From a virus: a stretch of 64,000 nt of DNA. This document shows positions 28,261-61,494 of this stretch, in pieces. A program made the position numbers and the translations under genes. The notes beneath the pieces are model-generated. The model saw only the letters and a list, made by a program, of their open reading frames with translations. It was not told where the DNA came from and did no database searches. The DNA is taken from the IMG/VR virus record IMGVR_UViG_3300018080_005419. One strand, written 5' to 3'. Every line of letters begins with the position of its first letter. Position 1 is the first letter of the stretch.

Positions 28261-29043
28261 TTATTCCTCAATTAAGATTTTACACCCTGTTTTATCAGCT
28301 AAAAACTGTATTAATTCATCTTTGCTTGCTTTTCCTAAACCATACATTCTTGAAGGCAGAGTCGCTTCTGATTCTTCTGTTTGTGTAAATTTCTTTCTTA
28401 CCTTTTTAGCTCTTGCAGGATTCTTTTTAACTCTCTTTTTCATCTTCTCAAACTCTTCTTCTTTCATGCGCTTTTCTTCTTCTTCTCTATCTTTAATTCG
28501 TTGAGCTTCTGAAACAAGAGCGCCAACACTTGAAGACATAGCATGATATTTTCTATCTTTATATTTTCCTCCACGGCCATATGTACTTATTTGTCCTCCC
28601 TTAATTCCAAAACTAATATCTCCAGCAGGAACATCTTTATCGCTTGGAATTGTTTCAGCAAGGTAAAAGCTTTTAATATCTTGTTGTCTGATTTGTTTCC
28701 GCTTTTCAACTTGAGCGTGTACACCAAAAAGCGCATCCAAGAAAAGCGCAATTTGTTCAAGTTTATCAGAACCCTTAAAAGTAAGAGGCTGACTTAGATT
28801 CATTGGGTTTTTAATTAAATCTTTTTCAGTAAAGACAGCACCACCTTCTCTGTCTTCTCCTGGGCCACCACTTGCTAATTTAGGAAATTCAAATGTGTAG
28901 AATTTATTTTCTTTTGGATGCAGAACAACGACAATATCACCTGGATCTGGAGTAATAGCCGCAATTACTACTCGTTTTCCAAGAATATCGGCAAGCATCT
29001 GAAAGGCGTCTTGTTTTGATGCAAGTTTAAGGGTGCCAGACAT
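28261..29043 (-). CDS. hypothetical protein with related N- and C-terminal motifs
   Basis: AAGGAG SD; LASKQDAFQMLADILGKRVVIA at the N-terminus and ASKDELIQFLADKTGCKILIEE at the C-terminus. Confidence 0.7.
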   Translation of the reverse strand: MSGTLKLASKQDAFQMLADILGKRVVIAAITPDPGDIVVVLHPKENKFYTFEFPKLASGGPGEDREGGAVFTEKDLIKNPMNLSQPLTFKGSDKLEQIALFLDALFGVHAQVEKRKQIRQQDIKSFYLAETIPSDKDVPAGDISFGIKGGQISTYGRGGKYKDRKYHAMSSSVGALVSEAQRIKDREEEEKRMKEEEFEKMKKRVKKNPARAKKVRKKFTQTEESEATLPSRMYGLGKASKDELIQFLADKTGCKILIEE

Positions 29044-32377: not shown

Positions 32378-35300
32378 TTATCCGCACCCACCAAAGTAAC
32401 CACAAGAAGGACAAGTAGGACATTTATCAGTACCATCTGTCATAATAGCACCACATTGAGGACATGCAGGACGAATCATACTAGATAAAGTATTGTCATT
32501 AATATTGTCATCATTTTGTTGAGGTTCTATAACCTTTTGTTGTTTCTTTGGTTTATGTTCTTCTTTTTGCTTTTTTTCTTGTTCTTGTGGTAATTGAAAT
32601 TCTTTAAATATACTAGGGTCTTTTAAATATCCTTCATCATCAAAATGCATCAACATCAATCTAGCAATATAGTCTACTGGGCTTGTTACTCTACGTAGCT
32701 CATCTTTTCTTCCTGTAAATCCCTTAGGCTCAAATTCAACATTTATAAATTTCGAACAAAGATTTCCTAAAGACTCACCTCTCTGTAGGGCAATCGAGAA
32801 AGCAATAGACCAGCATTCAAGCATATTATTCAGAGAAGAACCAGGATTACCAAAGGTCAGGAAAAACTCACAAATACGCCCATCAGGATACAGGAAAATT
32901 TGAAGATATCCTTGAGCTTGTCCAATTTTAATTCTGAATCTTAGCCCTCTTAATAAATCTCCTGGTCTTCTTCTTTGACCCCAATTTCTTCTAGCTTCAA
33001 CAATATCCTGATTTGTAATGCCCAAGGTTTCTAAGACATGAACAATATCGATAGCATTCTCATTCTTTCTTCTTGCCATTTCATTAAAGAGATCGTTATT
33101 TGTTAATCTTGTTATAAGTTCTTCAGAGTTAATAGAAATATCGCCATTTTGTTTTATAGCCAGAGGAGCAGAAGCCTTACAGTTATCTCTATATATGGAA
33201 ATTCCCTTACAACCTAATTTATATCCCATCTTAAAAGCTTCTGAAATATCATCTGTTGTTGAGGATTCTGGCATATTGATCGTTTTTGAAATACCACCAG
33301 AAACAAACGATTGAAGAGCCGCTAACATCTTAATATGACCCTTCCAATGAATCGTACCTTCTTCACCCAATGGAGAGGCTGCACATTTAAAAATATCTAC
33401 ATGTTGAGATTTAATTGCAGATCCTTTTACATGACCTTTTTCTTGAATATCATTACAAATAGAATCAATCTGGTCTTGTGTATATCCCAAGTTCTTTAAA
33501 GAATCAGAAATACAATTATTTACAAGCTTCATCATTCCACCACCAGCCAATGTTTTATATGTTACTAATGCATAACAAGGCTCAATACCAGTAGAATCAC
33601 AACCCATAATCAGAGAAATGGTTCCTGTTGGCGCTGCTACTGTTACTTGTCCATTTCTATATCCAAAACTTCCTCCCATAGAAATAGCTTCATCCCAACA
33701 TTCTTTTGCTGCTTTAAACAATTCTTTTGTTTTAGAAGAATAATGATCCTTATCTAATAATGGCAATGGTTTAATTTTTAATTTTTCATATTCTCCAACT
33801 TTTTTAACAACATCTCTTCTGGATAAAGGTTCCATGTCTTCGTGTAATCCATATGCTGCTCTACGATGATTACGTATAGCCTTTAATATATATTCTCTAT
33901 TTCTGTCATATGCAGGAAAAGCACCTAAATGTTCAGCAATTTCAGCAGAAGTAGTATAAGAATGTCCTGTCATAATAGACATCAATGCAGCAGCTATATT
34001 CATACTAACTTCAGAATCATAAGGTTGACCCATCAGCATTAAAAGAGTACCTAAATTTGCAGGTCCTAATCCTGTATTCCTATATTTCCAGACATTATGT
34101 GCTACTGCTTCGGAGGGTAATTGGGCCATGTCATTTGTCAGATCTAAAACAATTTGCCACATACGGATGGCATGTTTATAATTATCTACATTGAAAGTTT
34201 GAGATTTAATATCGAAAAACTTTGCTAAATTAATAGATGCTAAATTGCATGCGGTGTCGTTCAGAGAAATGTATTCTGAGCAATTTGAAACCAACATTTG
34301 ATCAGTAAAAAAATTATGATGTTTAGGGACATTTAAATCATAAACATCTTCTGTGTTAGATATTTCATTTACTTCAATTATTTTACTTTGTTTAATTTTT
34401 AAATTTTTGTTTAAAGTATAAATAATTTCTTCTGTTAATTCTTTTGCTCTTACCCACCCATTATTTGTATAAACCTCATGATCTGGGGTAAGTTTTAATT
34501 TTCCTTTGTTTGTTTTGATAATAACTAATTTAGCATTTCTTCTTGTAACTCCTAAATTATGAGCTTTAGCAACAACAACATTACCCTTATCATCACAAGA
34601 CAAAACTTTTACCGTTTTACTCTTAATATTTTTGATTTTTACTTTCTTGACTTTATCTTTTTCATTAACAACATAGACCAATGTGTCACCTGCCAGACAT
34701 GGATTTGTAGAATAAATTCTCCCATCAGCAGCAAGAGTATTCCAATCATTCATTGTACTATTAAAATGAATTGCAGGATCAGCACATTTCCAAGCAGATA
34801 AAATCATCTCTTCCCAAATTTCTGATGCTTTATATGATTTGGCAGGCTTACAAAGATCGTTAAGTTTTTCATAATCAACATTTCCTAATTCATCTGTAAA
34901 TTGTTTTTTGTCTAATCTCCACCATGTATCCCAAACTTCGCCATCCTCTAAAGCTTCCATAAATTCGTGAGAAACCGCTACACTGTTATTTCCATTTTGA
35001 CCACTTACTGTTTTATATGCTTCTCCATTAAAATCAGATTCATATCCTGCTGCAATTAATGCTTTTGCTTTCTTTTCTTCTTGAGATTTCCATTTAACAT
35101 ATTCCATAATATCTGGGTGATCAACGTCAACAACAAGCATTTTAGCAGCCCGTCTAGTATTGTGGGTAAATACACCGTGTAAGTATCTTGTTTGACCTTC
35201 TTTGTTAATTGGCTTATCTATTATGCAAACTACAGCAAAGTTCTGTTTGTCTTCTTCTTCATTGTCAACAGAAAGATTGTATGTTGGCTGAACACCTATT

Positions 35301-36493
35301 GGAGAAACAAGGCTGACTATGCATTCATTAATCTCCCCATATCCACGACATTTATTTCCTTTTTCTAATTTAAATGCTTTTACATATTCACCACTTGTTA
35401 AAAGAAACGGATGATCAAAAGAAACATTATATTCTTGCCCATCTGTAAATTTAACGTTTACACATTCTTTGTCTTCTGATTGGAAAACTTCTTTGACTGG
35501 TCTTAGAACTGTTTGGGAAGTATCTTTATCCCAGGAATAAACACGAGGAGAAAATTCTGCTTCTGCTAATTGTTGAATAGTAAATACTCCCTCTTCAGTT
35601 GGGATTTTTGTATCGGCACATAAACAGATCCCTCCAGACTTAATACAATCTGCAGCACGATCAAAAATTCTCAGGAACGACATTAATCCAGAAGAAGTAC
35701 CACCACCAGATAACATTTCTCCATCTGCTCTTAGATTGCTAAAGTTTGTACCCGCCCCACTTCCTAATTTAAAAATTCTCGCTTCTTTTCTTAAGAGATC
35801 ATAAATACCACCTTCATCCAATAAGTTATCTTCCAATCCTAAAATAAAACATGCATGGGCTTGACTTCTAGAATAAAGATCTGGTGATTTATTTACAGTG
35901 CCATCATCAGTCGCATAACAGTGACCGCATGGATTTCCTTTAATTCCATAAGCCCACCAAATTCCAGTATTAAAAAATTGAGGGCTATTTGGAGCAGCCA
36001 TTTGATGATACAACATATAGACTATTTCATCATAAAAAGCCTGAGCATATTCTTCACAAGGCTCATTATCCTCATTATTAAAATAGCCCTTAAGACAACC
36101 CCAATATGTCCATGCTCCTGCTAATCTATTGAATACTTGCTTTACACTTGTTTCTCCATGACCTACTGTGTCTGTATCAGGTTCATCATCAGATATAGAA
36201 GGCAAAATCCATTCAGGGTAATTAGATATTTTTCCGGCAATCTCTTCTAAACCTTGTGGCAGTGCATATGATGATTTTGTTTTAAATGGAATACCCGATC
36301 TTCTGAAATACTTAGAAGCCATAATGTCTACAGTTTGCTGGCTCCAATGTGCTGGTGCTTCTATGTCATTTAATTCATAGAGAATATTATTTGATCTATG
36401 GTCTTTGAGTTGAACATTAAATTTTTTCCATTTCAAAGAATCAAATATGTTCTTACCTTTTAAATCCTGAGTAAAGATACGATTGATTTCCAT
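32378..36493 (-). CDS. nrdJ: class II (adenosylcobalamin-dependent) ribonucleotide reductase with two inteins, TSCPD domain and C-terminal zinc ribbon
   Basis: APNSPQFFNTG, QAHACFI, IKSGG-/-TRRAAKM, STNP-/-CSEY, RNTGLGPANLG, VAAPTGTISLIMGCDSTGIEP, SGGISKTINMP, KGISIYRDNCK, terminal CPQC...CPTCPSCGYFGGCG. Confidence 0.95.
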   Translation of the reverse strand: MEINRIFTQDLKGKNIFDSLKWKKFNVQLKDHRSNNILYELNDIEAPAHWSQQTVDIMASKYFRRSGIPFKTKSSYALPQGLEEIAGKISNYPEWILPSISDDEPDTDTVGHGETSVKQVFNRLAGAWTYWGCLKGYFNNEDNEPCEEYAQAFYDEIVYMLYHQMAAPNSPQFFNTGIWWAYGIKGNPCGHCYATDDGTVNKSPDLYSRSQAHACFILGLEDNLLDEGGIYDLLRKEARIFKLGSGAGTNFSNLRADGEMLSGGGTSSGLMSFLRIFDRAADCIKSGGICLCADTKIPTEEGVFTIQQLAEAEFSPRVYSWDKDTSQTVLRPVKEVFQSEDKECVNVKFTDGQEYNVSFDHPFLLTSGEYVKAFKLEKGNKCRGYGEINECIVSLVSPIGVQPTYNLSVDNEEEDKQNFAVVCIIDKPINKEGQTRYLHGVFTHNTRRAAKMLVVDVDHPDIMEYVKWKSQEEKKAKALIAAGYESDFNGEAYKTVSGQNGNNSVAVSHEFMEALEDGEVWDTWWRLDKKQFTDELGNVDYEKLNDLCKPAKSYKASEIWEEMILSAWKCADPAIHFNSTMNDWNTLAADGRIYSTNPCLAGDTLVYVVNEKDKVKKVKIKNIKSKTVKVLSCDDKGNVVVAKAHNLGVTRRNAKLVIIKTNKGKLKLTPDHEVYTNNGWVRAKELTEEIIYTLNKNLKIKQSKIIEVNEISNTEDVYDLNVPKHHNFFTDQMLVSNCSEYISLNDTACNLASINLAKFFDIKSQTFNVDNYKHAIRMWQIVLDLTNDMAQLPSEAVAHNVWKYRNTGLGPANLGTLLMLMGQPYDSEVSMNIAAALMSIMTGHSYTTSAEIAEHLGAFPAYDRNREYILKAIRNHRRAAYGLHEDMEPLSRRDVVKKVGEYEKLKIKPLPLLDKDHYSSKTKELFKAAKECWDEAISMGGSFGYRNGQVTVAAPTGTISLIMGCDSTGIEPCYALVTYKTLAGGGMMKLVNNCISDSLKNLGYTQDQIDSICNDIQEKGHVKGSAIKSQHVDIFKCAASPLGEEGTIHWKGHIKMLAALQSFVSGGISKTINMPESSTTDDISEAFKMGYKLGCKGISIYRDNCKASAPLAIKQNGDISINSEELITRLTNNDLFNEMARRKNENAIDIVHVLETLGITNQDIVEARRNWGQRRRPGDLLRGLRFRIKIGQAQGYLQIFLYPDGRICEFFLTFGNPGSSLNNMLECWSIAFSIALQRGESLGNLCSKFINVEFEPKGFTGRKDELRRVTSPVDYIARLMLMHFDDEGYLKDPSIFKEFQLPQEQEKKQKEEHKPKKQQKVIEPQQNDDNINDNTLSSMIRPACPQCGAIMTDGTDKCPTCPSCGYFGGCG
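34283..34699 (-). mobile_element. mini-intein (139 aa) inserted immediately before the thiyl-radical Cys of NrdJ
   Basis: NP|CLAGDTLV...LTPDHEVYT...DVYDLNVPKHHNFFTDQMLVSN|CSEY. No endonuclease domain; penultimate residue is Ser rather than His. Confidence 0.92.
35159..35626 (-). mobile_element. mini-intein (156 aa) in the NrdJ SGG-x-TRRAA loop
   Basis: GGI|CLCADTKI...VSFDHPFLL...PTYNLSV...GVFTHN|TRRAA. No endonuclease domain. Confidence 0.92.
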
Positions 36494-36517: not shown

Positions 36518-36568
36518 CAAAAGAAAATAGTATCCCTTTAGAATTAAATATCTAATTGGGACACTATT
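36518..36568 (-). terminator. Rho-independent terminator upstream of nrdJ
   Basis: Minus strand: AATAGTGTCCC...GGGATACTATT stem (with an inner TTAGA/TCTAA stem), followed by TTCTTTTG. Confidence 0.65.
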
Positions 36569-36584
36569 AATTATAACTAAGTGA

Positions 36585-37637
36585 TTAAGGTGTTTCGGGA
36601 GGATTTTCTTGTATTTCTTCAACGTACTTCTCTACAACTTGAGGAGCCGGAACATCAGACAGATCAAGTTTAAGAGCTTTGTCACGTAATGCATCAACCT
36701 GTTTTGCTGCCAGACTAAGCAATTTCTCCACAAAGTCTGATTCATAGTTTCTTAAAAGACCAACCAAAGTCTCATTTAACTCTTGATTTTCCAGTATATT
36801 CATCAACGCAGTTTCAATATCATTAATTGCTCTCAGTTTAAAATCAGGAGATCTATACGAGAGAGTTAGCGAATCTGTAATTTGACGCCCCAGTCTCGAC
36901 AATATATCATAAAGATCTATATCAACCACATCAGAACCACGCATTTTATCACAAATAGCTTTCCCGATCATTCCAATTATTACAGTCTCGGGTTTCGACC
37001 GCATTTCTTCTAGCTTATCATATGCACCCTGAACCTCTACTTGTTGCATATCAAGAGAATTAAGAGCTTGAGCATCATTTATTTGTTTAATAGCATCGAA
37101 TACTTTTTGAGCACTTTCTTCTACAATTGCGTCTTTTGCCAGTTCTTTTGCTGCTTTAAGAATTCTTGCTGTTTTCTGATTAGTTACAGATTGGGGTCTT
37201 TCTACTGGCGCTACTTCTGCTTCCACTTCTTCTTCTTCAGTTTTAAGAGGAGACCCAAGAACTTCGTCTATTTTTTGCATTAATGCTGCTACCTCACTTG
37301 AATTAAATTGAGGCTTTGTTTGCGACTTATCTTTTGTTGAGGGAGCAGATGTAACCGGGTTTTTCCAATGTACTCTGACACCTAATTGATGAATATCGTC
37401 GTTAGGACCAATTAAAGAAGGTTGTACCCATGCAGCCATATATTGTTCTCTAAGTGTATTTCCACTACGATCTTTAATCACAGAAAATTCAACATCCCAA
37501 TCAAAAGAAGACTCGGGAACTTCTAATGTATATTCGGCTCCATGTCTTAAAGCAAGCTCATCGTTAAGAGGAGCCAGAATTTCCTGTTTGCAGAAAACCC
37601 AGTGTCTATTTGAAGCTTTTCGTCTGCGTAGTGCCAT
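36585..37637 (-). CDS. hypothetical protein (350 aa)
   Basis: AAGGAG SD, long ORF, no family recognised. Confidence 0.75.
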   Translation of the reverse strand: MALRRRKASNRHWVFCKQEILAPLNDELALRHGAEYTLEVPESSFDWDVEFSVIKDRSGNTLREQYMAAWVQPSLIGPNDDIHQLGVRVHWKNPVTSAPSTKDKSQTKPQFNSSEVAALMQKIDEVLGSPLKTEEEEVEAEVAPVERPQSVTNQKTARILKAAKELAKDAIVEESAQKVFDAIKQINDAQALNSLDMQQVEVQGAYDKLEEMRSKPETVIIGMIGKAICDKMRGSDVVDIDLYDILSRLGRQITDSLTLSYRSPDFKLRAINDIETALMNILENQELNETLVGLLRNYESDFVEKLLSLAAKQVDALRDKALKLDLSDVPAPQVVEKYVEEIQENPPETP

Positions 37638-37651: not shown

Positions 37652-38167
37652 TTAGCTTTTCCATTTCCAACCATAAAATGTTGATCTATAAACATCTGGT
37701 TTTACAAAAAATACATCTTCTCCAATTTCTTCAACATTAGGCAAACAATCCTGATCTAATCTTGTTGTCCAGTTTACTTGAGAACCTTTAAATGGACCGT
37801 CTTGGAAAACAGCTTCTCCATCTATAAATTTAACTTTTGCTTGTACTGGAATATCACTAAGCATAGGACGAATCTCAATTAAACATCTTTTCTTTTGTGT
37901 AGCGCTGGCATTATGTACTTCTATTCTATATTGCTTATTATATTTCCTTTTTAGTTTTTTAACTGCTCTACGAATATCGTTCATTAAACCATTACATTCA
38001 AATGTCCCGTGATTTGGATTCTTACATATAATAACTACACCATTTAAAGATGAAATTTGCGACATAACATCTTCAAATACATCTTTAGGAACTTTAAGAT
38101 ATTTTGCTGCTTTTCTGATTGTTTCTTCTTGCAGCATCATAGCTAGATATATTTTGCGTTTGGACAT
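37652..38167 (-). CDS. hypothetical protein (171 aa)
   Basis: ATG behind AAGGA; tiled in the operon. Confidence 0.7.
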   Translation of the reverse strand: MSKRKIYLAMMLQEETIRKAAKYLKVPKDVFEDVMSQISSLNGVVIICKNPNHGTFECNGLMNDIRRAVKKLKRKYNKQYRIEVHNASATQKKRCLIEIRPMLSDIPVQAKVKFIDGEAVFQDGPFKGSQVNWTTRLDQDCLPNVEEIGEDVFFVKPDVYRSTFYGWKWKS

Positions 38168-38180: not shown

Positions 38181-38765
38181 CTAAAATAGCTGGAATAATA
38201 AAACTTTTTTGAAAAGATTAGAAAGAATTCCGCCAGTTTTCAATTCTTCTGTATTATTATCTTTAGGAATAACATCGGTACTGGATTTTCCTTTTGCTAC
38301 ATTAAGTCCCAAAGATTCTGCTAAATCATTAATAGAATTTTCACCCTTAATAAAAACATCTACTCCAGGAAGCATATTTTCAATTTGTTTAGCTCTTTTA
38401 ACTCTTCCTGTACTGACAATATATGGAATATCTTGATGCTCTTGGTCTAGATATTTAGCTAAAGAAAATCCATCAGCATTTTTTCCTTCACCTTCTAATC
38501 CCAAATCGATAACAATTGCTTTAACTTTATCTCCATTTCCATATTCTTCAATTCTCTTTTTTGCTTCACTTACATTTTTAGCGCTGACAATTTCAAATAT
38601 TTCGCCTCTAGAATTGAATAGTCTTTTAATCAATTCAACAGCTTCTTCTTTATCATCAACAACAATAAAAACACCTTCTCTTTCGTGTATTCTAATTCTT
38701 TTAGAGGCACGGAAATATTTCTGAAGTTCACTGTTCATTTGGGAAAAGTTTGTTTTGTTTTGCAT
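38181..38765 (-). CDS. single-domain response regulator (receiver) protein
   Basis: Acidic pocket FIVVDDKEE, phosphoacceptor AIVIDLGLEG...DGFSLAKYL, then VSTGR and the conserved Lys in VFIKGE. No DNA-binding output domain. Confidence 0.8.
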   Translation of the reverse strand: MQNKTNFSQMNSELQKYFRASKRIRIHEREGVFIVVDDKEEAVELIKRLFNSRGEIFEIVSAKNVSEAKKRIEEYGNGDKVKAIVIDLGLEGEGKNADGFSLAKYLDQEHQDIPYIVSTGRVKRAKQIENMLPGVDVFIKGENSINDLAESLGLNVAKGKSSTDVIPKDNNTEELKTGGILSNLFKKVLLFQLF

Positions 38766-38767
38766 TT

Positions 38768-39148
38768 TTATTCTCTTTCTCTATTGCACTCTCTCATTAC
38801 CTTTTCAATTTCAGTCAAAGTTTCAACCGCTTTCTTTTCTCTTACCTTAGATTCACGCAAAGCTCTTTTAACGGTTTCCATTGTTTTGGTTGATTCTCCA
38901 ATTAGAGCCACCATCTGTTTATATGCATCATTTAAATTTCTTTGTGCTTCTTTTCTCTCGCTTCTTTGTGTAAAATATAAATAAGCAATTGCTGAAGCTA
39001 ATATACTAATTACTCCACCAAATACTTTTAAATAAGTACTGTCTAATTGTGTTAACACCTGTTTTGTAACAATATCTGCTACAAATTGCGCAAAAACTTT
39101 TAGATCTGCTAGGCTTGTATTTGTTAGTTGTTCAATAGGTTCTGCCAT
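38768..39148 (-). CDS. single-TM membrane protein, holin-like (BhlA-type topology)
   Basis: One hydrophobic segment VFGGVISILASAIAYLYF followed by a charged coiled-coil tail. Confidence 0.4.
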   Translation of the reverse strand: MAEPIEQLTNTSLADLKVFAQFVADIVTKQVLTQLDSTYLKVFGGVISILASAIAYLYFTQRSERKEAQRNLNDAYKQMVALIGESTKTMETVKRALRESKVREKKAVETLTEIEKVMRECNRERE

Positions 39149-39158
39149 TTCAAATTCC

Positions 39159-41321
39159 TTATAAATCTAACAATTCTTGTACTTTAGAAACAAAATCTGA
39201 TAAATCAAATGGCTTATATAAAAATTCATCATATTCTGTTTCTTCTAAATTTTCTTGTTGTATTCTTCCGGTTAATATCATGACTTTTGGTTTTATTCCT
39301 TTACATTTAGACAATTTATTCAAAAATTCTATTCCAGTCATTTTGGGCATTTGTATGTCGGTTACAACTAATTCAAAAGGATTCTTCTCGTGTTCTTCAA
39401 GTGCTTCGTATCCATCATCTCCAGAAAAGACCTCATAATTATATGTTTTCAATGTTTGTGTTAAGAGCTTACATAATTCAAATTCATCGTCTAATACCAA
39501 CACTCTTTTGTTTTTGCCATTTTTAATAACAACAGTATTGCTTTTTTCTTCTTCTGTGTCTTTTTGAATTGGATTTTTGTTTTCATCTGATGGATTTTCA
39601 AATGTTAAAGTAAAAGTAGTACCAACATTTATTTCACTTTCAACAGATATTTCACCGCCATTCTTTTTCATTATCAAACTGCACATTGCCAAACCAAGTC
39701 CATTACCTGTAAATTTCTTTTGCGATTCTTCTCTGGCGAATGAACCCTTTGTGCTGAAAAATGGGTCAAATAATTTCTTTTGATCTTCTTCACTAATGCC
39801 ATGTCCAGTATCTGATATTTTTAAACATATGTTTTTGTCGTTGCTCTCTATATGAAATGAAACAGTTTTTTCAGGTCGATTATTTACAGCATGTCTTGCA
39901 TTTAGGACAATATTAAGAATTGCCTGTTTTACTTGGGCTGGGTCTGCAAATATAGTATATTGTTTTTCATTTGTCTTATCTGCAGAATCGAAATTGGATA
40001 TAAATTCTATTCCTTCACTTGAAAATTCTTTATGTACCAAGGATTTTGTATTCTCAACTAACTCCAACAAAGAAACCATTTTTTTGTTTATTCCATTTGC
40101 ATTTTCTCTTGCATAGTCTAGTAAACCCTTTGTAACCTCAGCGCCACGAGATATCATTTTTCTAACTGTTTTAAGACTTTCTAATGCTGTGTCTGAAATT
40201 CCTGGCATATTTAACACAATATCAAGATTACACATTGCTATAGAATTAATGTTATTATATTCATGTGCTATACCTGCTGCCAATGTACCTGCTGATGCCA
40301 AAGCAGCAGAACGGATAAGGGCTTTTTCAATTTCTTTTCTTTGTTCTACTTCTGCTTGCAGTTCTAAGAAGTGTTTTTGTTTTTCTTCTTTGTGTTTGAC
40401 TCTTTCTATTTCAACAATTTTTTCTATTTCTATATCGCGAACCAAAAACATAGCACCATCAACCTTTTCATCTCCGACAATTGGTGATATTTTTATTTTA
40501 ACATGAGTGTTTTTTCCACTAACAGATTCTAAAATAAATTGTTCTTGTGTGTCAATTTGCTCTGCATTGCCAATCACTCTTTCAAATATATTTTCAGTTA
40601 TATTGTTTTTAGCATCATTTTTTAAACTAATTATATTTCGAATATCTTTGTATAGAATCTCCTCATTAGATAGACCAAAAATTTCTTGAGCGATATTATT
40701 AACTCTTCGCACTCTCATTTTTCTATCAATAATAACAACACCTTCCATAGAAGATTGCATCATTGTTTCAAGATCGCACTCACATCGACCTAATGCTTCT
40801 TCTATTATTTCGCCTTTTTCAACAATTTTCACAAGGTCAGAAAAAGTGTGAACAAGCTCTAGACAATCAATATTGAAAGGCTGAGCACTTTTAAAAACAA
40901 AGCAAATAACTCCAACAACATAAGAATCTACAATAACCTTGCAACCCACTACTCCTTTAAGATTATTATCAATATTCACATTTAAAGCAGAAACATCGGA
41001 TGGTTTGTTATAGATCTTCTTACACACATCGATAATTGCACTTTTATCTTTTATATCTTTTGTTTTAGCTGACAGTTCAATTTCACCGTCAGATTTTAAA
41101 AATGCATAAAAAGCAGCTTCAGCATCTATTATACGTGCCATTATTTGAAGAGGCCCTGCTAATACTTCACCACATAAGTCAGGGCCATGTGGCAATTGGT
41201 TTTCTTGAAATACGCTTCTTCTATTTTGAAAACAGAAATTACAGGAGTGTTTTTCTCTATTTTTAAAGAATAGATAAACAACCAGAAATGTAAGAATAAT
41301 AGAAGTAACACAATAAAACAT
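39159..41321 (-). CDS. hybrid sensor histidine kinase (TM anchor, GAF-like, PAS, HisKA, HATPase_c, REC)
   Basis: H-box AAGIAHEYNN, N-box QAILNIVLNARHA, G1 ISDTGHGI, F-box FDPFFSTKG, G2 GNGLGLAM. PAS segment EGVVIIDRKMRVRRVNNIAQEIFG. REC domain VLDDE...TDIQMPKMTG...LTG...KPF. Confidence 0.93.
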   Translation of the reverse strand: MFYCVTSIILTFLVVYLFFKNREKHSCNFCFQNRRSVFQENQLPHGPDLCGEVLAGPLQIMARIIDAEAAFYAFLKSDGEIELSAKTKDIKDKSAIIDVCKKIYNKPSDVSALNVNIDNNLKGVVGCKVIVDSYVVGVICFVFKSAQPFNIDCLELVHTFSDLVKIVEKGEIIEEALGRCECDLETMMQSSMEGVVIIDRKMRVRRVNNIAQEIFGLSNEEILYKDIRNIISLKNDAKNNITENIFERVIGNAEQIDTQEQFILESVSGKNTHVKIKISPIVGDEKVDGAMFLVRDIEIEKIVEIERVKHKEEKQKHFLELQAEVEQRKEIEKALIRSAALASAGTLAAGIAHEYNNINSIAMCNLDIVLNMPGISDTALESLKTVRKMISRGAEVTKGLLDYARENANGINKKMVSLLELVENTKSLVHKEFSSEGIEFISNFDSADKTNEKQYTIFADPAQVKQAILNIVLNARHAVNNRPEKTVSFHIESNDKNICLKISDTGHGISEEDQKKLFDPFFSTKGSFAREESQKKFTGNGLGLAMCSLIMKKNGGEISVESEINVGTTFTLTFENPSDENKNPIQKDTEEEKSNTVVIKNGKNKRVLVLDDEFELCKLLTQTLKTYNYEVFSGDDGYEALEEHEKNPFELVVTDIQMPKMTGIEFLNKLSKCKGIKPKVMILTGRIQQENLEETEYDEFLYKPFDLSDFVSKVQELLDL

Positions 41322-41335: not shown

Positions 41336-41374
41336 AAATTAAAGGATCACCGCAAAAGGTTAACGATGATCCTT
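41336..41374 (-). terminator. probable Rho-independent terminator just upstream of the kinase gene
   Basis: Minus strand: AAGGATCATCG...CGGTGATCCTT (11-bp stem with one G-U pair), then TAATTTT. Confidence 0.55.
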
Positions 41375-41396: not shown

Positions 41397-42299
41397 TTAA
41401 TCTCGGACCTTAATGGTTTTCTTTATTAAATTGGAGAGATACTGCAAGGCTTCATTTGTGCTGGCAAAAGTTAATTCATCCTCATCTAAAAGACAATTAA
41501 GATATTGTTTTGCGTCTTCTTGGCTGCTAAAAATAATTTGCGATTGTCCATTTTCATTGTAATTATGAACAGATGCAACACGATCTACAATAACTGGCGT
41601 ATGTTTATTACCCATATAATCTAAGACGGGAACATTTTCTTTTTCAAAAAACGTTTGATTCAATTTCTTTTTAGCATCTGTTAATTGTTCTTGTTTTTCC
41701 TCTTCATTTTTAGGCTTTGGTTTATGATATTTTTTCTGATACCAATCTAAAACCAACTCAATATATTCTTTTATTTCTCCCTCTTTTAATTCTGGTTTTC
41801 TTTGCACAATAAAATCTATTGGTTTATCTATAAGTTCTGCAATTTGATCGCCAATATGTTGGTTTCCTTCTTCATCAACCCAGCCAAAATGCATAGCAGC
41901 AGTTTTTGGTTTACCTTTATTGGCAATTTCCCTATCTTTGCGATGGTATAATTCTCTAAGAATACTCTGCGCTCTCTTAATTTCTTTTCTGCGACTACGA
42001 GACAATCTTTTTCCTGCCCTGTTCAAATATAATTGGATTTTTGCAACTGCTGATTGAAATGTTGGAGCTTTGCGTTTTACTTCAATTGCGATTTCTTCTG
42101 CTGTATTATTGCCTGAAAAAGTACCTTCTTCCTCTTCAACAGTATCCCTAGTGGTGAGTTCCTGAATCCAACGGGGACCACCCTTGTGTATTTTCTTTTG
42201 ACTCTTGCTCTTACTTTTAGGAGTTTTCTTTTTGCTAGTGGTTTTCTTTTTACCTTTAGCAACCCTAAAACGGCAATGTTTATCTTCATCAAGCGCCAT
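41397..42299 (-). CDS. DUF3175-like domain protein
   Basis: PRWIQE...EEGTFS...AEEIA...TFQSAVAKIQLYLNRAGKRLSRSRRKEIKRAQSILRELY matches the DUF3175 pattern. ATG at 42299 lies behind GGAG. Confidence 0.6.
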   Translation of the reverse strand: MALDEDKHCRFRVAKGKKKTTSKKKTPKSKSKSQKKIHKGGPRWIQELTTRDTVEEEEGTFSGNNTAEEIAIEVKRKAPTFQSAVAKIQLYLNRAGKRLSRSRRKEIKRAQSILRELYHRKDREIANKGKPKTAAMHFGWVDEEGNQHIGDQIAELIDKPIDFIVQRKPELKEGEIKEYIELVLDWYQKKYHKPKPKNEEEKQEQLTDAKKKLNQTFFEKENVPVLDYMGNKHTPVIVDRVASVHNYNENGQSQIIFSSQEDAKQYLNCLLDEDELTFASTNEALQYLSNLIKKTIKVRD

Positions 42300-42433: not shown

Positions 42434-42459
42434 AGCTAAAAGAAAGGAATTTGTCAATT

Positions 42460-42852
42460 ATGTTTAGGATACTTGTTGGTTTTATTCTTATTTTGAGTTA
42501 TTCTGGCAATATTAATAATGATAAAAAGCCATATTATGTTGAGGTAAGGGCAACAGCATATTGTCCTTGTGAAAAATGTTGTGGAAAATTTGCAGACGGT
42601 ACAACATCAACAGGTAGAGACGCTTATTTACCAGGAATAGCAGTAGATCCAAAGAAAATACCCTTAGGAAGCCATGTGGATATTCCAGGATACAAAAGAG
42701 GCCCAAATAAAAATGGTTCTTGGATTTTATGTGACGATGTAGGTGGAAAAATTAAAGACTGGCATATAGATGTTCGATTTAAAACACATCAAGAAGCTTT
42801 AAACTGGGGTGTAAAAAGGGTTAAGATTCGAGTGCATCCTAAAGCAAACTAG
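42460..42852 (+). CDS. 3D (Asp-Asp-Asp) domain protein, MltA-like lytic transglycosylase fold, with an N-terminal signal/anchor
   Basis: VRATAYC....CCGK...GTTSTG, IAVDPKKIPLGSHVDIPGY, CDDVGGKIK..HIDVRF..HQEALNWG. Hydrophobic N-terminus. Confidence 0.88.
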   Translation: MFRILVGFILILSYSGNINNDKKPYYVEVRATAYCPCEKCCGKFADGTTSTGRDAYLPGIAVDPKKIPLGSHVDIPGYKRGPNKNGSWILCDDVGGKIKDWHIDVRFKTHQEALNWGVKRVKIRVHPKAN

Positions 42853-43222
42853 CTATTTTAAGGATTCTAGCCACTCTTTTATAGCGGTATTTAGGACGGA
42901 TATAACGATTAAAATATCTTCCTTTAGAGGGCGCTTCAAGTAACTTCTGTACTATTTCTTCTGGAACATTAGCGTACTGAAATATACCTCTTTTATGGAA
43001 TCTAATCTCCAGCAATCTTTTACGTTTATTATATCGAATACTATCTATTGTTCGTGAATCATTGCCTATTTCGAACTCTTTAAATCCTGTCCACTTTTCT
43101 TTAATCCAATCTTTAACTCTTTGTAGAATTCCGCCCTGAGCAATAATAATTTTAACATCACCAGTATAATCTGATGATGTCAAAAGTTTAGAAGACCTGA
43201 CTATATAAATTTCATTAGCCAT
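42839..43222 (-). CDS. KTSC domain protein
   Basis: SRTIDSIRYNKRKRLLEIRFH.RGIFQYANVPEEIVQKLLEAPSKGRYFNRYIR. Confidence 0.88.
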   Translation of the reverse strand: MANEIYIVRSSKLLTSSDYTGDVKIIIAQGGILQRVKDWIKEKWTGFKEFEIGNDSRTIDSIRYNKRKRLLEIRFHKRGIFQYANVPEEIVQKLLEAPSKGRYFNRYIRPKYRYKRVARILKIASLL

Positions 43223-43571
43223 TTGTGTTATTTTTATTTTCCCACTCCTCTGCCATCATTTGTTTTGCAAGCATTCTACCTACATAGCTTTCACGAGATA
43301 GTTTTGAGGCAATCTTTTTATATGGGTATTTATCAGGGTCACTTCGAATGTTTTTATAGAAGTATTTTCCGTATGATTCTGCATCTAATAAATTTTGAAC
43401 AGTTTTAGGATCTACATTTTCATATTGATACTCTCTGTCGCCTTTAAAGCGAATTTTAAGAATTTTTTTATTTTCGTCATATTGGATAGCTGTAATAGAG
43501 CTAGATCCCTCTAATTTCTTCCAATCCTTTATATCTTCAAGAGTCAATTTTGGTTTTTCATCATTAGGCAT
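43215..43571 (-). CDS. KTSC domain protein
   Basis: SSSITAIQYDENKKILKIRF.GDREYQYENVD...VQNLLDAESYGKYFYKNIR. ATG at 43571 lies behind AGGAG. Confidence 0.88.
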   Translation of the reverse strand: MPNDEKPKLTLEDIKDWKKLEGSSSITAIQYDENKKILKIRFKGDREYQYENVDPKTVQNLLDAESYGKYFYKNIRSDPDKYPYKKIASKLSRESYVGRMLAKQMMAEEWENKNNTNG

Positions 43572-43620
43572 AACTGTATCTCCTTGTTGAATCAATTGTT
43601 TAAGTGTCTTCTTCTAATGG

Positions 43621-51388: not shown

Positions 51389-52510
51389 TTAAATTGTTTT
51401 CCATACGTTTCTATTAACATAGTCAATATAACTCATAATTATTCTAACAACCTTCTTTGAAACATCTTTGCTATCATAATCCGGAACCATTCTAAATTGG
51501 TGTTTCTCCAAATAATGTTTACGAACAATTTCTATCGATTCAAATACTCTGTCATATTGCAAACCAGACATAATAATTGTACCTTGATCCATACCTTCTG
51601 GGCGTTCGTGGCTATCCCTAAGTGTTATAGCTGGAAATCTTAAAATGGATGATTCTTCTGTAATTGTTCCACTATCAGAAAGAACACAAGCAGCATGTTT
51701 TTGTAAATAGATATAATCAAAAAATCCAAGAGGTTTAATAAAATTAATTCTGGAATCTGTTATACTAAATCCATTTTCATCTAAACGTTTTTGTGTTCTG
51801 GGATGTGTTGAAATAATAATTGGAAAATCGTGATGCTTTGCTAACTTTTCTATTGTCGTTACTAGTTCATTCAATCGCAAAGGAGAATCGACATTTTCTT
51901 CTCGATGAATGCTGACAACAAAATAACTATTGTCTTTTAATTTTAATTTTTCTAATACACCTGATTCTGCTATTTTGTCTTTGTAGTGCTCCAGAACTTC
52001 AAACATAGGAGATCCAGTTTTCATTATAAATTGAGATTGGATTCCTTCAGATAAAAGATGTCTTCTCGCATGTTCAGTATAGACAAGATTAATGTCGCTA
52101 ATATGATCAACAATTCTTCGATTTATCTCTTCCGGAACGCACTCATCAAAACTTCTATTTCCTGCTTCCATATGAAAAATGGGAACTTTACATCTTTTAG
52201 CAGAAATAGCAGAAAGGCAACTATTTGTATCCCCTAAAATCAAAAGAGCATCTGGTTTTTCTTTTTTAAGAATTAGATAAGATTTCTCTATAATTTTACC
52301 TAAAGTTTCCCCCAAATTCGACCCAACAACTTCTAAAAAATGATCCGGCTTTCTAATCTTTAAATCTTTGAAGAATATTCCATTTAATTCCCAATCATAA
52401 TTTTGCCCTGTATGAATTAAAACGTGATTAGCAGTTTGATCAAGTTCTGCTACTACACGAGATAGCTTTATTAATTCTGGACGAGTACCAACAATAGTGG
52501 CAATCTTCAT
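51389..52510 (-). CDS. UDP-sugar 2-epimerase, FnlC/QnlB/WbjD type (WecB family)
   Basis: VGTRPELIKL, HTGQNYD, LILGDTNSCL, HMEAGNRSFD...PEEINR, HREENVD, SDSGTITEE, ERPEG. Confidence 0.92.
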   Translation of the reverse strand: MKIATIVGTRPELIKLSRVVAELDQTANHVLIHTGQNYDWELNGIFFKDLKIRKPDHFLEVVGSNLGETLGKIIEKSYLILKKEKPDALLILGDTNSCLSAISAKRCKVPIFHMEAGNRSFDECVPEEINRRIVDHISDINLVYTEHARRHLLSEGIQSQFIMKTGSPMFEVLEHYKDKIAESGVLEKLKLKDNSYFVVSIHREENVDSPLRLNELVTTIEKLAKHHDFPIIISTHPRTQKRLDENGFSITDSRINFIKPLGFFDYIYLQKHAACVLSDSGTITEESSILRFPAITLRDSHERPEGMDQGTIIMSGLQYDRVFESIEIVRKHYLEKHQFRMVPDYDSKDVSKKVVRIIMSYIDYVNRNVWKTI

Positions 52511-52524
52511 TTTATTTTATACCT

Positions 52525-53577
52525 TTATCTGAGCAATTCATCTTGATTCGCATCTTCAACCATAAGCCGATATTTTCTTAATAATTCGCAAGTACCAGTT
52601 AAATCTAAAGGATTATCCGCCGAACTATACTCTTTTGTTAAAGCTGTATTCTTCTCATTATTAAACAACTCAGGTAACATAGGGCCAATAACATAATAAT
52701 CTCCACGCGCAATAGTACGGCTTATTTCTTCTTCGGATACCATAATTTCATGTTGTTTTTCTCCGGGTCTAGTCCCAATAACTTTTATTTCTATTTGCCT
52801 ATTATCAATTAATGTTTTTGCTATATTCTGCATTGTAGCTGAAGATATACGCGGAATATAAGTTTCTCCAGCCTTCGCAGTTTGTATCGCACTAAATACT
52901 GTATCAACAGCCTTATTAAGAGGTAAGAGAAATCTTGTCATTTTTCCGTTTGTAATTGTAACAGGACCGCCACTTAAAATTTGATCATGAAATAGAGGAA
53001 TTACAGATCCTCTAGATGCGAGAACATTACCATATCTAACACATACAAAACGAGTCTTTTTGCTTAAAATATTGGCAGATATAAACAATCTTTCTTGTAT
53101 GGCTTTTGACATTCCCATAACATTTACAGGCTTACAGGCTTTATCTGTACTAACACCAACAACAACCTCACTATGATAATCACTTTCTTCTATTGCACGA
53201 ATTAGATTGTAGACTCCCTTACAATTAGTTAAAACTGCTTGATATGGAAAATATTCACATGTAGGAACTTGTTTAAGAGCCGCCGCATTAACAATAATAT
53301 CTGCATCTCTAACTGCCGAAACAATATCAGGATAATTGCGAACATCTCCAATTCTAAACTCTAAAGCATTTTTAAAATTATTAAAAATTGTTTCGTCAGT
53401 TGTAATCCTTCTATTTAAATATTCAACCCTCATCTTATGTTGTTTTGCTTCGTCTCTCGAAAATACAATAACTTTCTTGGGTGTTCCTTGCTCACCTGTT
53501 AATACACGTTTAACAAAGGTTTTCCCTAAAGATCCTGTTCCTCCAGTAATCAATATTGTTTTATCTTCAAAAATCAT
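52525..53577 (-). CDS. fnlA: UDP-GlcNAc 4,6-dehydratase/5-epimerase (FnlA/WbjB/CapE type)
   Basis: LITGGTGSLG, FSRDEAKQ, AAALKQVPTCEYFP, STDKACKPVNVMGMSKA, RYGNVLASRGSVIPLF, MTRF, RPGEKQHE. Confidence 0.9.
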   Translation of the reverse strand: MIFEDKTILITGGTGSLGKTFVKRVLTGEQGTPKKVIVFSRDEAKQHKMRVEYLNRRITTDETIFNNFKNALEFRIGDVRNYPDIVSAVRDADIIVNAAALKQVPTCEYFPYQAVLTNCKGVYNLIRAIEESDYHSEVVVGVSTDKACKPVNVMGMSKAIQERLFISANILSKKTRFVCVRYGNVLASRGSVIPLFHDQILSGGPVTITNGKMTRFLLPLNKAVDTVFSAIQTAKAGETYIPRISSATMQNIAKTLIDNRQIEIKVIGTRPGEKQHEIMVSEEEISRTIARGDYYVIGPMLPELFNNEKNTALTKEYSSADNPLDLTGTCELLRKYRLMVEDANQDELLR

Positions 53578-53585
53578 AATTTCCC

Positions 53586-54449
53586 CTAATTTGAAAGTTT
53601 ATTTGCTAATTCTGAAATCATTTCGTTCCATGATGGGATATTGTAGTTACTTTGCTTTTTAAATAGGTCACAATTCAAACTTCGATCACAATAAAAATCT
53701 TGGTCTGGTACAATTTCAATATTTAGATTCATTGCTTCTTTTATTTGAGAAAGCAGATCATATTTAGAAATTAGTTTACTTGAGATATGAATTAATCCTT
53801 TTAGATTCTCTTCGTTTTGAATAATATGTTTTATAATTCTTGACAATTCATATGTAGTAAATCCAGAAAAAATAGCATTCTTGAATCCTTTAACTGTTTT
53901 TTCTTGTTGACTTAAAAACCATTCCAACAAGCCTTTTTTACGACAAAGTTCTGGCCCAATAATAGATGTTCTAATTGTAAGATTCGGCTCTCCTATTTCT
54001 CCAATATATTTAGACTTGCCATAGATATCTTTAGCATCTGATATATCTGATTCTAAATAGTTACCTTTTTTTCCTGAAAAAACACAATCTGTACTTAAAT
54101 GAATCAATCTAAATTTGTACTTTTGAGATAATAAAGACAACTGATGAGGAAAAAGACCATTTACTTTAATATTTATAATTGGATCAGATCCTTCTTCTCT
54201 TTGCTTAATAATCCCAACACAATTAACTACAACATTTGGGCAAAAATTTTTAAATATTTGCTCAAGTTTATTATCATTTATATCAACATTGTCAAATGCA
54301 TTGTAAAATTTAAAAATACCATTATATTTTGGGTCTGACAAACCTTTATGGAGAGTTGCCTTTACATTAATATTATGATCTTCTTCTAAACATAAAAATA
54401 ATTGATGTCCTAACATTCCTCCGCCGCCAACAACTAAAACTTTGTCCAT
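53586..54449 (-). CDS. RmlD-family NAD(P)H reductase (QnlA/WbvR-like)
   Basis: VVGGGGMLG, NCVGIIKQ, HLSTDCVFSG..G.Y.ESD..DA.DIYGKSK, RTSIIG, FSGFTT. No C-terminal cupin domain. Confidence 0.85.
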   Translation of the reverse strand: MDKVLVVGGGGMLGHQLFLCLEEDHNINVKATLHKGLSDPKYNGIFKFYNAFDNVDINDNKLEQIFKNFCPNVVVNCVGIIKQREEGSDPIINIKVNGLFPHQLSLLSQKYKFRLIHLSTDCVFSGKKGNYLESDISDAKDIYGKSKYIGEIGEPNLTIRTSIIGPELCRKKGLLEWFLSQQEKTVKGFKNAIFSGFTTYELSRIIKHIIQNEENLKGLIHISSKLISKYDLLSQIKEAMNLNIEIVPDQDFYCDRSLNCDLFKKQSNYNIPSWNEMISELANKLSN

Positions 54450-54699
54450 TTTATTTTCCTTATCTACAATTAAACAAACAAATTCTGATTTTATTGTATC
54501 CGTTTAAAATTAGTTCTAATTGTCAAAATGCAGAAATTTAAGATCTTTCTTTTAATCTTAATATTGCGACTTGTAAGCCAATTAAGTCGTTTTATATTAA
54601 TCACTTATAAAAAAAATAGAAAAACTTCATAAAAGTTTAAAATTTTTCAGTATGATTTTGTCTATAAGATCAGAAAATATTGCTAAAAAGGAGAAGATA

Positions 54700-55461
54700 A
54701 TGAAAAGAAACGCATTTACACTTGTCGAATTATTAGTTGCACTTTCGATTATTACCCTTATGATGGCTTTTTTGCTACCTGCACTACATTCAGTAATTGA
54801 AGAAGCATACCAGATCCAATGCATTAATAATCAAAAACAACTAGCATTGGGAGTTTTATCTTTTGCTGATGATATGCGAGGTCAAATCCCAGGCAATACA
54901 GCAGATAGTACTCAAAATGAACCAATGAAACGAGATTGGCTACGTGGGGCATATTATTACGGAAGCGATCCTACATCTGAGGGAATGCTAGCTGCTCCAC
55001 ATGAAGGAACTATCTTTCCATATATAGAAAACGGAGAAGTATATCTCTGTCCAAAAGTTCAAAAAGGTGCTATTTTTGAAAAGGATTGTGGAAATGGCAT
55101 GTTTGATTACAGTATGTTCCTTGCCTTTTCAGGAGCATATATTCGAAATATGCCCAAAGAAATGAGATATAATTTGGGCGGTGCTTATATTGAGAACTTA
55201 CATGTTCCTTTATTTATAGAAGAAAACGTCAATAACAAATTAAACCAATCTGTAGAAGGCGGCTTTGCATGGCAAGATTCTATTTCGCCTCGTCATAGAG
55301 AAAACTCCACTATAAGCAAAATTGATGGGTCTGCTAGAATACAAAAAATGAATCTTATCAAAAACATGAAGGTTCAAAATATTCAAATGCATACTCTTGA
55401 CGGTCGCTGGTTAACTGTTAATCAAAGAGGAGTCAAATTTGGAGATTGGAATAGTAGATAG
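54700..55461 (+). CDS. prepilin-type N-terminal cleavage/methylation protein with H-X9-DG motif (DUF1559-like)
   Basis: ATG at 54700 behind AAGGAG. MKRNA|FTLVELLVALSIITLMMAFLLPAL...A..IQCINNQKQL, and C-terminal RH-RENSTISKI-DG. Confidence 0.88.
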   Translation: MKRNAFTLVELLVALSIITLMMAFLLPALHSVIEEAYQIQCINNQKQLALGVLSFADDMRGQIPGNTADSTQNEPMKRDWLRGAYYYGSDPTSEGMLAAPHEGTIFPYIENGEVYLCPKVQKGAIFEKDCGNGMFDYSMFLAFSGAYIRNMPKEMRYNLGGAYIENLHVPLFIEENVNNKLNQSVEGGFAWQDSISPRHRENSTISKIDGSARIQKMNLIKNMKVQNIQMHTLDGRWLTVNQRGVKFGDWNSR

Positions 55462-55511
55462 ATTATAAATGCATTTAATCGTCAATAATTTTTAAAGGGC
55501 GTTGATCATTT

Positions 55512-58265: not shown

Positions 58266-58266
58266 T

Positions 58267-58743
58267 CTAAGTTCCTTTGTCATTTTTTAAAATTATATTA
58301 ACCATCTCCCTAAATGCACCATCTCCTCCGCATACCTGTAGTACTTCGCACACAGCCTTTACCTCTTCTACCGCATCTATTGGACAAAAGGAGTTCCCCG
58401 CCAGCGTTAAGATTTCTAAGTCTGGCAAATCATCACCTAAATAAACCACTTCAGACCATTTAATATCATTATCTCGGATAATCTTCTTAACTACGTCGAG
58501 TTTTCCATTCGGATCAATCCCTTGAATAATGTAATCTAAATTTAACTTTTTATATTTACTATTTAATATTTCCTTTGCTGAATCACAACTAATAATTCCA
58601 GTCTTTATTCCGCGTTTTTGCAAATCTATAAATCCAACACCATCTTTCATGTTAAATGTTTTTGAACATACGCCATTGCTATCTATAGTCACTCTTCCAT
58701 TAGTAAGACAACCATCACAATCTGTAAGAACTAACTTTATCAT
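58267..58743 (-). CDS. KdsC-like HAD phosphatase (3-deoxy-ulosonate phosphate phosphatase)
   Basis: LVLTDCDGCLTNG, FNMKDGVG, YLGDDLPDL, DAVEEVK, GGDGAFRE. Confidence 0.88.
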   Translation of the reverse strand: MIKLVLTDCDGCLTNGRVTIDSNGVCSKTFNMKDGVGFIDLQKRGIKTGIISCDSAKEILNSKYKKLNLDYIIQGIDPNGKLDVVKKIIRDNDIKWSEVVYLGDDLPDLEILTLAGNSFCPIDAVEEVKAVCEVLQVCGGDGAFREMVNIILKNDKGT

Positions 58744-61493: not shown

Positions 61494-61494
61494 A

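Follow-up and report, generated by a model that had tools for sequence, protein, structure and literature searches.

A hybrid histidine kinase and a stand-alone receiver that probably form a phage-specific two-component module in a lineage of very large phages

Can a phage possess a two-component signalling system that serves the phage itself? This question is raised by a stretch of viral DNA of 64,000 nucleotides (IMG/VR record IMGVR_UViG_3300018080_005419; we call the whole stretch the window). Genes for a hybrid sensor histidine kinase and a stand-alone receiver lie on its minus strand at positions 38,181 to 41,321, in a block between the genes of thymidylate kinase and class II ribonucleotide reductase (RNR), ~19 kb from the tape-measure gene. 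An earlier note on this DNA had described a phage-borne kinase and receiver with intact catalytic residues. The open reading frames (ORFs), the Pfam matches and the family alignments bear out that description. The same note overlooked a gene for a 126-aa protein with a single transmembrane (TM) segment, which lies between the two genes and is part of the conserved cassette of this lineage. We think that the cassette is, on balance, a phage-specific cognate two-component module that has been kept by selection in a lineage of ~250-280-kb phages, as judged from sequence comparison. The three genes and the parts of the kinase are as follows; DHp denotes the dimerization and histidine phosphotransfer domain and CA the catalytic and ATP-binding domain.

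39159..41321, minus strand: hybrid sensor histidine kinase of 720 aa (P0001), from the ORF list, Pfam, the family alignment and a profile-to-PDB search
41259..41321, minus strand: N-terminal TM anchor of the kinase, residues 1-21, predicted N-out/C-in from the hydrophobic segment and the positive-inside rule
40821..41177, minus strand: GAF-like alpha/beta sensor domain, residues ~49-167, from AlphaFold model m89fc511b775e and Foldseek, with no Pfam match
40431..40775, minus strand: PAS domain, residues 183-297, from Pfam PF00989 and a PAS fold in the model
40002..40310, minus strand: DHp (HisKA-like) helices, with the codon of H353 (in AHEYNN) at 40263-40265, aligned to the DHp domain of CckA (5idj)
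39597..39944, minus strand: CA domain (HATPase_c), containing the N, G1, F and G2 boxes and an ATP-lid insertion peculiar to the family, from Pfam and the family alignment
39180..39503, minus strand: fused receiver, residues 607-714, with the codon of D655 at 39357-39359, from Pfam and the family alignment
38768..39148, minus strand: single-TM protein of 126 aa with a coiled C-terminal tail (P0002), from the ORF list; candidate kinase accessory protein
38181..38765, minus strand: stand-alone receiver of 194 aa (P0003), from Pfam REC, a 24-member alignment, a structure model and Foldseek

The 720-aa protein possesses an H box, a Bergerat-fold CA domain and a fused receiver with an Asp pocket. 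By these features it is classified as a class I (HisKA-type) hybrid sensor histidine kinase, and autophosphorylation is predicted. Pfam recognized the PAS domain (30 bits; cutoff 22.6), the HATPase_c domain (residues 460-575, E 2e-22) and the Response_reg domain (E 3e-20), and the HisKA model of Pfam gave no match in this protein at E<=0.01. The profile of the kinase family aligned residues 338-572 to the DHp-CA part of CckA (5idj; E 2e-25), and AHEYNN was placed on AHDFNN. Among the ten members of the kinase family (alignment A1, 41-47% identity), H353, E354, N356 and N357 were invariant. The same was true of N474 (LNARHA), of D504, G506 and G508 in the G1 box (DTGHGI), of F518 and F522, and of G539, G541 and G543 in the G2 box (GNGLGL). 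In the fused receiver, D611 and D612 were invariant in the ten members, and D655, T684 and K703 were found in every full-length one. The H-E-x-x-N arrangement is the one that, in HisKA kinases, goes with both kinase and phosphatase activity. The insertion in the ATP lid, ~9 residues long, is visible against CckA and is common to the kinase of a second phage lineage, which is described below.

The N-terminal part of the kinase carries a single hydrophobic helix with a basic C-terminal flank, and this was seen in all six orthologs examined. Nearly the whole kinase is therefore expected to lie in the cytoplasm. That is, the kinase has essentially no periplasmic part, so that sensing of the envelope, if any, would occur only via the membrane or via the 126-aa partner. 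An AlphaFold model of residues 38-300 (predicted local distance difference test, pLDDT, 79.5) showed an alpha/beta sensor domain, a long helix and the PAS domain. With Foldseek, tandem GAF-PAS and PAS-PAS sensors matched this model, and the best overall match was GAF-PAS of DhaR(N), 4lrz. The label "GAF-like" that the earlier note had given is thus reasonable, although the domain is not separable from a PAS-like one. The PAS domain contains no recognisable cofactor motif.

The stand-alone receiver was matched by Response_reg of Pfam with 39.3 bits (cutoff 30.2). Its residues D37, D38, D87 (codon 38505-38507), T119 and K140 were invariant in the 24 members of the receiver family (alignment A7, 40-56% identity) and were also present in the receiver of the second lineage. 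Two motifs were invariant in the 24 members as well, a basic one at the N-terminal end (YFRxSxRxRI) and IPxD in the C-terminal part, and the conservation at the N-terminus backs the start at 38765. When the family profile was searched against the database, it retrieved 25 proteins, all of one tight family. The model of the receiver (pLDDT 80, core >90) has a (beta-alpha)5 fold, to which a basic helix is added at the N-terminus; its tail is disordered and ends in a hydrophobic segment. Foldseek gave a generic match to many solved receivers, with target TM-scores of 0.70-0.78. The protein consists of a receiver domain with no DNA-binding output domain, and its tail is predicted to be disordered. 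We also considered that it might be a recent copy of the receiver of the kinase itself, and this was rejected, as BLASTP shows no detectable similarity between the two.

Does the block belong to the phage? An identical kinase is encoded on five contigs, which come from independent assemblies (ENA and JGI); the longest, ENA ERZ27256796 k141_362108, has 280,011 bp. The window encodes a 2311-aa tape measure protein (phrog_167, E 1e-10), proteins matching tail-tube, minor-tail and virion structural proteins, a DnaB-like helicase, an SNF2 helicase and a class II RNR, both intein-bearing, as well as Tmk and NT5C. The GC content of the signalling block equals that of the surrounding window. Relatives with kinases of only 41-47% identity keep the gene order of the window: NT5C, Tmk, KTSC, 3D (reverse strand), DUF3175 and kinase, followed by the small TM gene, the receiver, a gene of ~165 aa, a gene of ~350 aa and RNR. 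A metagenome-wide pattern scan found nine contigs of this lineage, three of which were already in hand, and the kinase, the TM gene and the receiver were present wherever the contig was long enough. At least nine diverged contigs, from assemblies made independently, show this gene order. Since the gene order is kept in relatives that are only 41-47% identical, contamination and chimerism are excluded. The suspicion of host contamination, which the earlier note had wished to see checked, does not hold, because the identical kinase recurs on five contigs, synteny is kept among diverged phages and no cellular ortholog was found among the genomes searched; misassembly was rejected on the same grounds. 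No close DNA relative of the window was found among 50,697 phage records. Searches of IMG/VR with a single kinase or with receiver alignments gave no match; only the alignment of the kinase family and a degenerate DNA pattern made by hand recovered the one IMG/VR contig, which is described below.

The comparison with cellular proteins concerned both partners. For the receiver family, no relative was found among 185,579 species (one genome each). Cellular kinases, from many phyla, match only the DHp-CA-REC core of the window kinase, with <=34% identity. The NCBIfam equivalog scores of the kinase were all far below the cutoffs, the best being those of AtoS, a generic subfamily, EspC and CckA. 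In a quick maximum-likelihood tree of 72 kinase cores, the ten phage kinases formed one clade, with a support of 98 in the Shimodaira-Hasegawa-like approximate likelihood ratio test (SH-aLRT).

The second lineage (L098) is IMGVR_UViG_3300029288_000063, a contig of 253,102 bp with a GC content of 48.6%, as against 33% in the window phage. Its kinase has 525 aa with the layout PAS-HisKA-HATPase-REC, is matched by Pfam HisKA (E 4e-7) and shares 33% identity with the window kinase over residues 336-712 of the latter. Its receiver has 195 aa, begins 20 nt downstream of the kinase and aligns to the receiver-family profile with an hhalign probability of 99.8%. It shares with that family the motifs FRSSRK (N-terminal), PGVD-x-x-x-KG and IPxD. 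Apart from the kinase-receiver pair, the 21-kb region of this contig and the 64-kb window have no gene in common. Three membrane features are missing from the second lineage, namely the TM segment and GAF-like part of the kinase, the small TM gene and the hydrophobic tail of the receiver. Because these features vanish together, we read the three proteins of the window lineage as membrane-acting; as seen in two lineages, this is a sign that all three may act at the membrane. Two further receiver genes were noticed. A 6-kb contig with a GC content of 42% (L103, Ga0172381_10020204) bears at its edge, at 3-221, part of a member of the receiver family (E 8e-21), and it may represent a third lineage carrying the pair. 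In two relatives of the window phage (L004 and L005), an extra 127-aa receiver (Pfam E 2.5e-18; L004:7968-8351, plus strand) replaces the second KTSC gene; it has Arg at the position of the conserved Lys and apparently no Thr/Ser.

The kinase and the receiver are co-inherited on two different backbones and their catalytic residues are invariant. We therefore regard them as a working cognate pair, and we have good confidence in this part of our reading as a prediction. Several points weigh against the reading as a whole. Kinase activity, phosphotransfer and the identity of the partners are predictions from sequence features. The receiver is atypical, as read from the alignment: it has K140-G141 instead of the usual Lys-Pro, the switch position three residues before the Lys is V/I and not aromatic, and its Pfam score is modest; the Lys-Pro pair and the aromatic switch residue on beta5 are common in receivers and not defining. 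The tree was a quick search with SH-aLRT support only, and some of its "cellular" rows are metagenomic proteins of uncertain origin. The borders of the transcription unit are predicted from spacing and hairpins. Finally, hybrid kinases normally need an Hpt (histidine phosphotransfer) protein to reach a second receiver, and no Hpt was seen within the 64 kb here or the 21 kb around the second pair; the scan covers the 64-kb window of a 280-kb contig, and ~216 kb lie outside it.

Neither an Hpt domain (PF01627) or ChpT-like protein (PF10090) nor, near the pair, a DNA-binding output domain was found among the window ORFs of at least 100 aa, in the precomputed Pfam matches within 10 kb on either side, and around the pair of the second lineage. 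The earlier note had made the same two statements from the letters, and the Pfam scans near the pair agree with it. The 126-aa protein cannot be an Hpt, because it contains no histidine, and we ruled it out for this role. Because no Hpt was seen, transfer to D87 would be either direct from H353 or via an Hpt elsewhere. Three routes are conceivable. The phosphoryl group may pass directly from H353 to D87, in which case the fused receiver would compete as a sink or would regulate the transfer; it may pass through an Hpt encoded in the other ~216 kb; or it may pass through an Hpt of the host. We lean slightly against the direct route without an Hpt. Since the stand-alone receiver has no output domain, it must act through protein binding.

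The 126-aa protein has a TM segment at residues ~39-60, an acidic N-terminal part and a basic coiled C-terminal part, with one invariant Cys. Its gene lies between kinase and receiver in every contig of the window lineage and is absent from the second lineage. No match was obtained with Pfam, PHROG or NCBIfam, holin families included. From its position, topology and co-occurrence, we take it as a candidate accessory protein of the kinase. LiaS-LiaF and SaeS-SaePQ are known as intramembrane-sensing kinases with small membrane accessory proteins. The window kinase resembles them in having almost no extracytoplasmic part and a small membrane protein encoded alongside, although these systems show no sequence relationship to the window proteins.

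How might the module work? All steps of the mechanism that we propose derive from domain homology. One N-terminal helix would anchor the kinase in the inner membrane, with the remainder in the cytoplasm. The GAF-like and PAS domains may read an intracellular or membrane-proximal cue, perhaps together with the 126-aa single-TM partner. The cue would shift the kinase towards autophosphorylation of H353 or towards phosphatase activity, as the HE-x-x-N motif of bifunctional HisKA kinases is present. The phosphoryl group would then be passed to D655 of the kinase's own receiver and to D87 of the dedicated stand-alone receiver, and the latter may act via protein contact on a phage factor, a host factor or the kinase itself. 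As a more specific and tentative picture, about which we are rather doubtful, the cassette may be a private, insulated phosphorelay in which the virus-specific kinase reads the state of the cell, the receiver gates a viral decision and the 126-aa protein serves as co-sensor. The decision gated in this way could be one such as late transcription via the divergent sigma-like factors of the phage, or lysis timing. Such a relay would be a sensory circuit for decisions that the phage owns and has not borrowed from its host. That late functions or lysis are timed by the energy or redox state of the host is speculation.

The pair is deeply conserved, is absent from cellular genomes and recurs in two unrelated giant-phage backbones, and these three features suggest that it performs a job for the virus itself. 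Phages eavesdrop on host signals with borrowed receptors. If our reading is true, the pair would offer a handle on how very large phages tune infection to the state of the cell. The pair is probably insulated from bacterial systems. A hybrid kinase without a neighbouring Hpt also lends itself well to asking whether transfer is direct or relayed.

The alternative that survives best, though we consider it unlikely, is that the kinase feeds or drains a phosphorelay of the host, that is, its Hpt or ChpT-like proteins and regulators, and thereby reprograms the cell cycle or the envelope or stress responses; the phage receiver would then be a sink or modulator and not the output. The hybrid layout, which normally passes phosphate to an Hpt, agrees with this when no phage Hpt is visible, and so does the resemblance of the DHp-CA part to CckA-type kinases, which are bifunctional and stand atop multistep relays. 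There is a precedent in the kinase AgrC of Clostridioides difficile phage phiCDHM1, which comes without a phage regulator and was proposed to act through host AgrA (PMC3901668). In contrast, the pair examined here is co-inherited in two deep lineages that differ in GC content and presumably in their hosts, and this argues that the receiver is a core partner of the kinase. In addition, the kinase is far diverged from cellular kinases, which is unexpected if the recognition of host partners must persist.

It seems even less probable that the cassette is a switch for lysis timing, in which the 126-aa protein would be a holin or antiholin fired under the control of kinase and receiver, with the 3D-domain hydrolase gene 3 kb upstream included. 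The 126-aa protein is small, has a single TM segment and a charged tail, and its gene is apparently translationally coupled to its neighbours (gaps of 10 and 2 nt). The 3D-domain gene, the nearest wall-hydrolase-like gene, is conserved nearby, on the opposite strand. However, the 126-aa protein has no holin match in PHROG or Pfam. It is absent from the second lineage together with the TM segment of the kinase and the tail of the receiver, which fits a membrane co-factor of the kinase better. Moreover, the basic flank after its TM segment predicts a cytoplasmic C-terminal tail, which would lie beside the cytoplasmic helices of the kinase.

Lastly, that the pair is a passenger or an artefact (recently captured host DNA, a misassembly or a decaying pseudo-system without function) is very hard to believe: several "phage" records with kinase matches do look bacterial and composition alone cannot exclude capture, but the identical kinase on five independently assembled contigs, the phage-gene synteny kept at 41-47% identity, the matching GC content, the invariance of all catalytic residues and the lack of a cellular ortholog among the searched genomes speak against it.

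We compared the pair with systems already known. The window kinase is like the CckA-type kinases of the CckA-ChpT-CtrA/CpdR relay of Alphaproteobacteria in its PAS-DHp-CA-REC layout and in its H box, A-H-(E/D)-(Y/F)-N-N. The DHp-CA part of CckA (5idj) was the best sequence match among solved structures, and CckA models were among the top NCBIfam matches. The CckA relay ends partly in CpdR, a single-domain receiver acting through protein contacts. Nevertheless, the window kinase is not CckA, because it scored 150.8 and 141.9 bits with the CckA equivalogs NF046020 and NF046026, the cutoffs of which are 1000. Unlike CckA, it has no ChpT/Hpt gene seen nearby, another sensor (one TM segment plus the GAF-like domain) and the ATP-lid insertion, and it is phage-encoded and forms part of its own clade.

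The AgrC of phiCDHM1 is, like the window kinase, a histidine kinase carried by a phage, and it is transcribed. It is of the agr-type peptide-sensing kind, was recently derived from the host and occurs with AgrB and AgrD, and the phage has no response regulator (PMC3901668). In contrast, the window phage has its own dedicated receiver, of a family without a close cellular relative. The phaeoviruses (EsV-1, FirrV-1) and other giant viruses of eukaryotes are likewise large DNA viruses encoding hybrid kinases, which are thought to sense activation cues (PMC12993054). They account for most of the viral receiver-like folds in BFVD, which number only 19. These viruses infect eukaryotes, however, their kinases are of unrelated families, and no conserved gene for a partner receiver has been described for them. 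The uncultured huge phage LR756501 (735 kb) encodes a 737-aa PAS-HisKA-HATPase-REC protein among phage-like hypothetical genes. This protein is only 25% identical to the window kinase over CA-REC, lacks an adjoining stand-alone receiver and was neither annotated nor discussed. Alteromonas phage V22 has a CheY-like gene that was catalogued among auxiliary genes for signalling (PMC7289586). Its product is, like the window receiver, a receiver-only phage protein, but it stands alone, with no kinase, and is of a different family.

The earlier note had also called such systems rare in phages, and our counts point the same way. Any kinase-like match was found in 96 of the 50,697 phage records, and the two annotated top kinase matches that we inspected lie among bacterial-type genes. 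These were the kinases of Acinetobacter phage MD-2021a (CAKLQH020000001.1) and Microcystis phage MaAM05 (MW495066.1). We rejected both as phage examples, since ordinary bacterial genes flank them (lrp, rhtB and MFS transporters; aspS, coaE and rnhC). These records, or their kinase-bearing parts, may not be phage DNA. Exact-phrase searches of the literature for kinases and regulators encoded by phages or viruses matched no paper, and no description of a complete phage-specific kinase-receiver pair was found in the searchable literature. A review of jumbo phages names only a divergent receiver, which was never linked to kinases, and the huge-phage paper does not mention kinases.

The cassette belongs to a block of five closely spaced genes (kinase, 126-aa, receiver, 171-aa and 350-aa), the internal gaps of which are 10, 2, 13 and 14 nt. 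Wider gaps set the block off, 75 nt to the upstream DUF3175 gene and 91 nt to the downstream class II RNR. The remaining features of the block are the following.

37652..38167, minus strand: 171-aa protein, downstream neighbour by tight spacing, not cassette-specific
36585..37637, minus strand: 350-aa protein, last gene of the tightly spaced block, not cassette-specific
41342..41374, minus strand: hairpin with a T-rich run after it, in the gap that separates the DUF3175 gene from the ribosome-binding site of the kinase, read from the sequence
36526..36568, minus strand: hairpin and T-run 3' of the 350-aa gene, with a GTTATAGTAT-like motif before the hairpin, from RNAfold on six orthologous intergenic regions

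The hairpin just upstream of the ribosome-binding site of the kinase has an equivalent in five of six orthologous loci, and it may be a terminator or an attenuator. At the other end, the GTTATAGTAT-like motif directly after the stop of the 350-aa gene, followed by a strong hairpin and a T-run before RNR, was found in all six loci (36526-36584 here). This conserved element may serve as a terminator, act as a promoter element or form a leader structure. Hairpins at both ends would fit a transcription unit of five genes. A consensus scan for sigma-70 promoters and terminators gave sites not above chance.

Both the 171-aa and the 350-aa protein belong to orphan families of strong conservation, which had no match in Pfam, PHROG, NCBIfam, the PDB sequences or Atlas. 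The 350-aa family is very rare (18 representatives among 1.84 billion proteins) and varies hardly at all over its first ~130 residues, and no His is invariant in the 171-aa family. In one distant relative (L013), homologs of both are followed by RNR, and a non-receiver gene lies upstream. In another (L011), a 350-aa homolog occurs in a different context, without kinase or receiver. We considered both proteins as Hpt or output components and found no support for this, as they have no domain matches and occur without a detectable adjoining kinase or receiver in these relatives. For the latter reason we regard them as neighbours and not as members of the cassette; they are probably co-transcribed neighbours rather than signalling components. 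The 350-aa gene stays beside RNR even in L013.

A few observations concern the rest of the window and its relatives. Two tandem KTSC-domain genes (42839-43595, minus strand) are followed by the 3D-domain (wall-hydrolase-like) gene on the opposite strand (42451-42852), and this arrangement is kept in all relatives. A motif, E-A/L-L/I-Q-x-L-x-x-L/K-...-I-x-V/I, ends both the DUF3175 protein (41397-41468) and an unrelated 260-aa protein (28261-28330), both on the minus strand. It is also found near the N-terminus of a 143-aa gene that occupies the position of the signalling cassette in the distant relative (L013:120-551).

The class II RNR gene (32378-36493, minus strand) contains intein-type insertions (Intein_splicing, PT-HINT). 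In four relatives (L004, L006, L008 and L009), RNR is divided into 2-4 ORFs, split by inteins and by genes for LAGLIDADG and Vsr-like endonucleases, and the splitting pattern differs from phage to phage. The SNF2-type helicase gene (1332-4478, minus strand) is interrupted by an intein with a LAGLIDADG endonuclease.

A gene at 54652-55461, among the few on the plus strand, encodes a protein with a prepilin-type N-methylation motif and DUF1559. We take the DUF1559 family to be greatly expanded in Planctomycetota and other PVC bacteria, and this gene is a possible hint to the host. At 51389-63790 on the minus strand there is a large sugar-nucleotide/glycan cluster with UDP-GlcNAc 2-epimerase, a CapD-like dehydratase, RmlD-like reductases and UDP-galactopyranose mutase. 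The cluster also holds HAD, SDR and HMGL-like enzymes, a cytidylyltransferase and glycosyltransferases.

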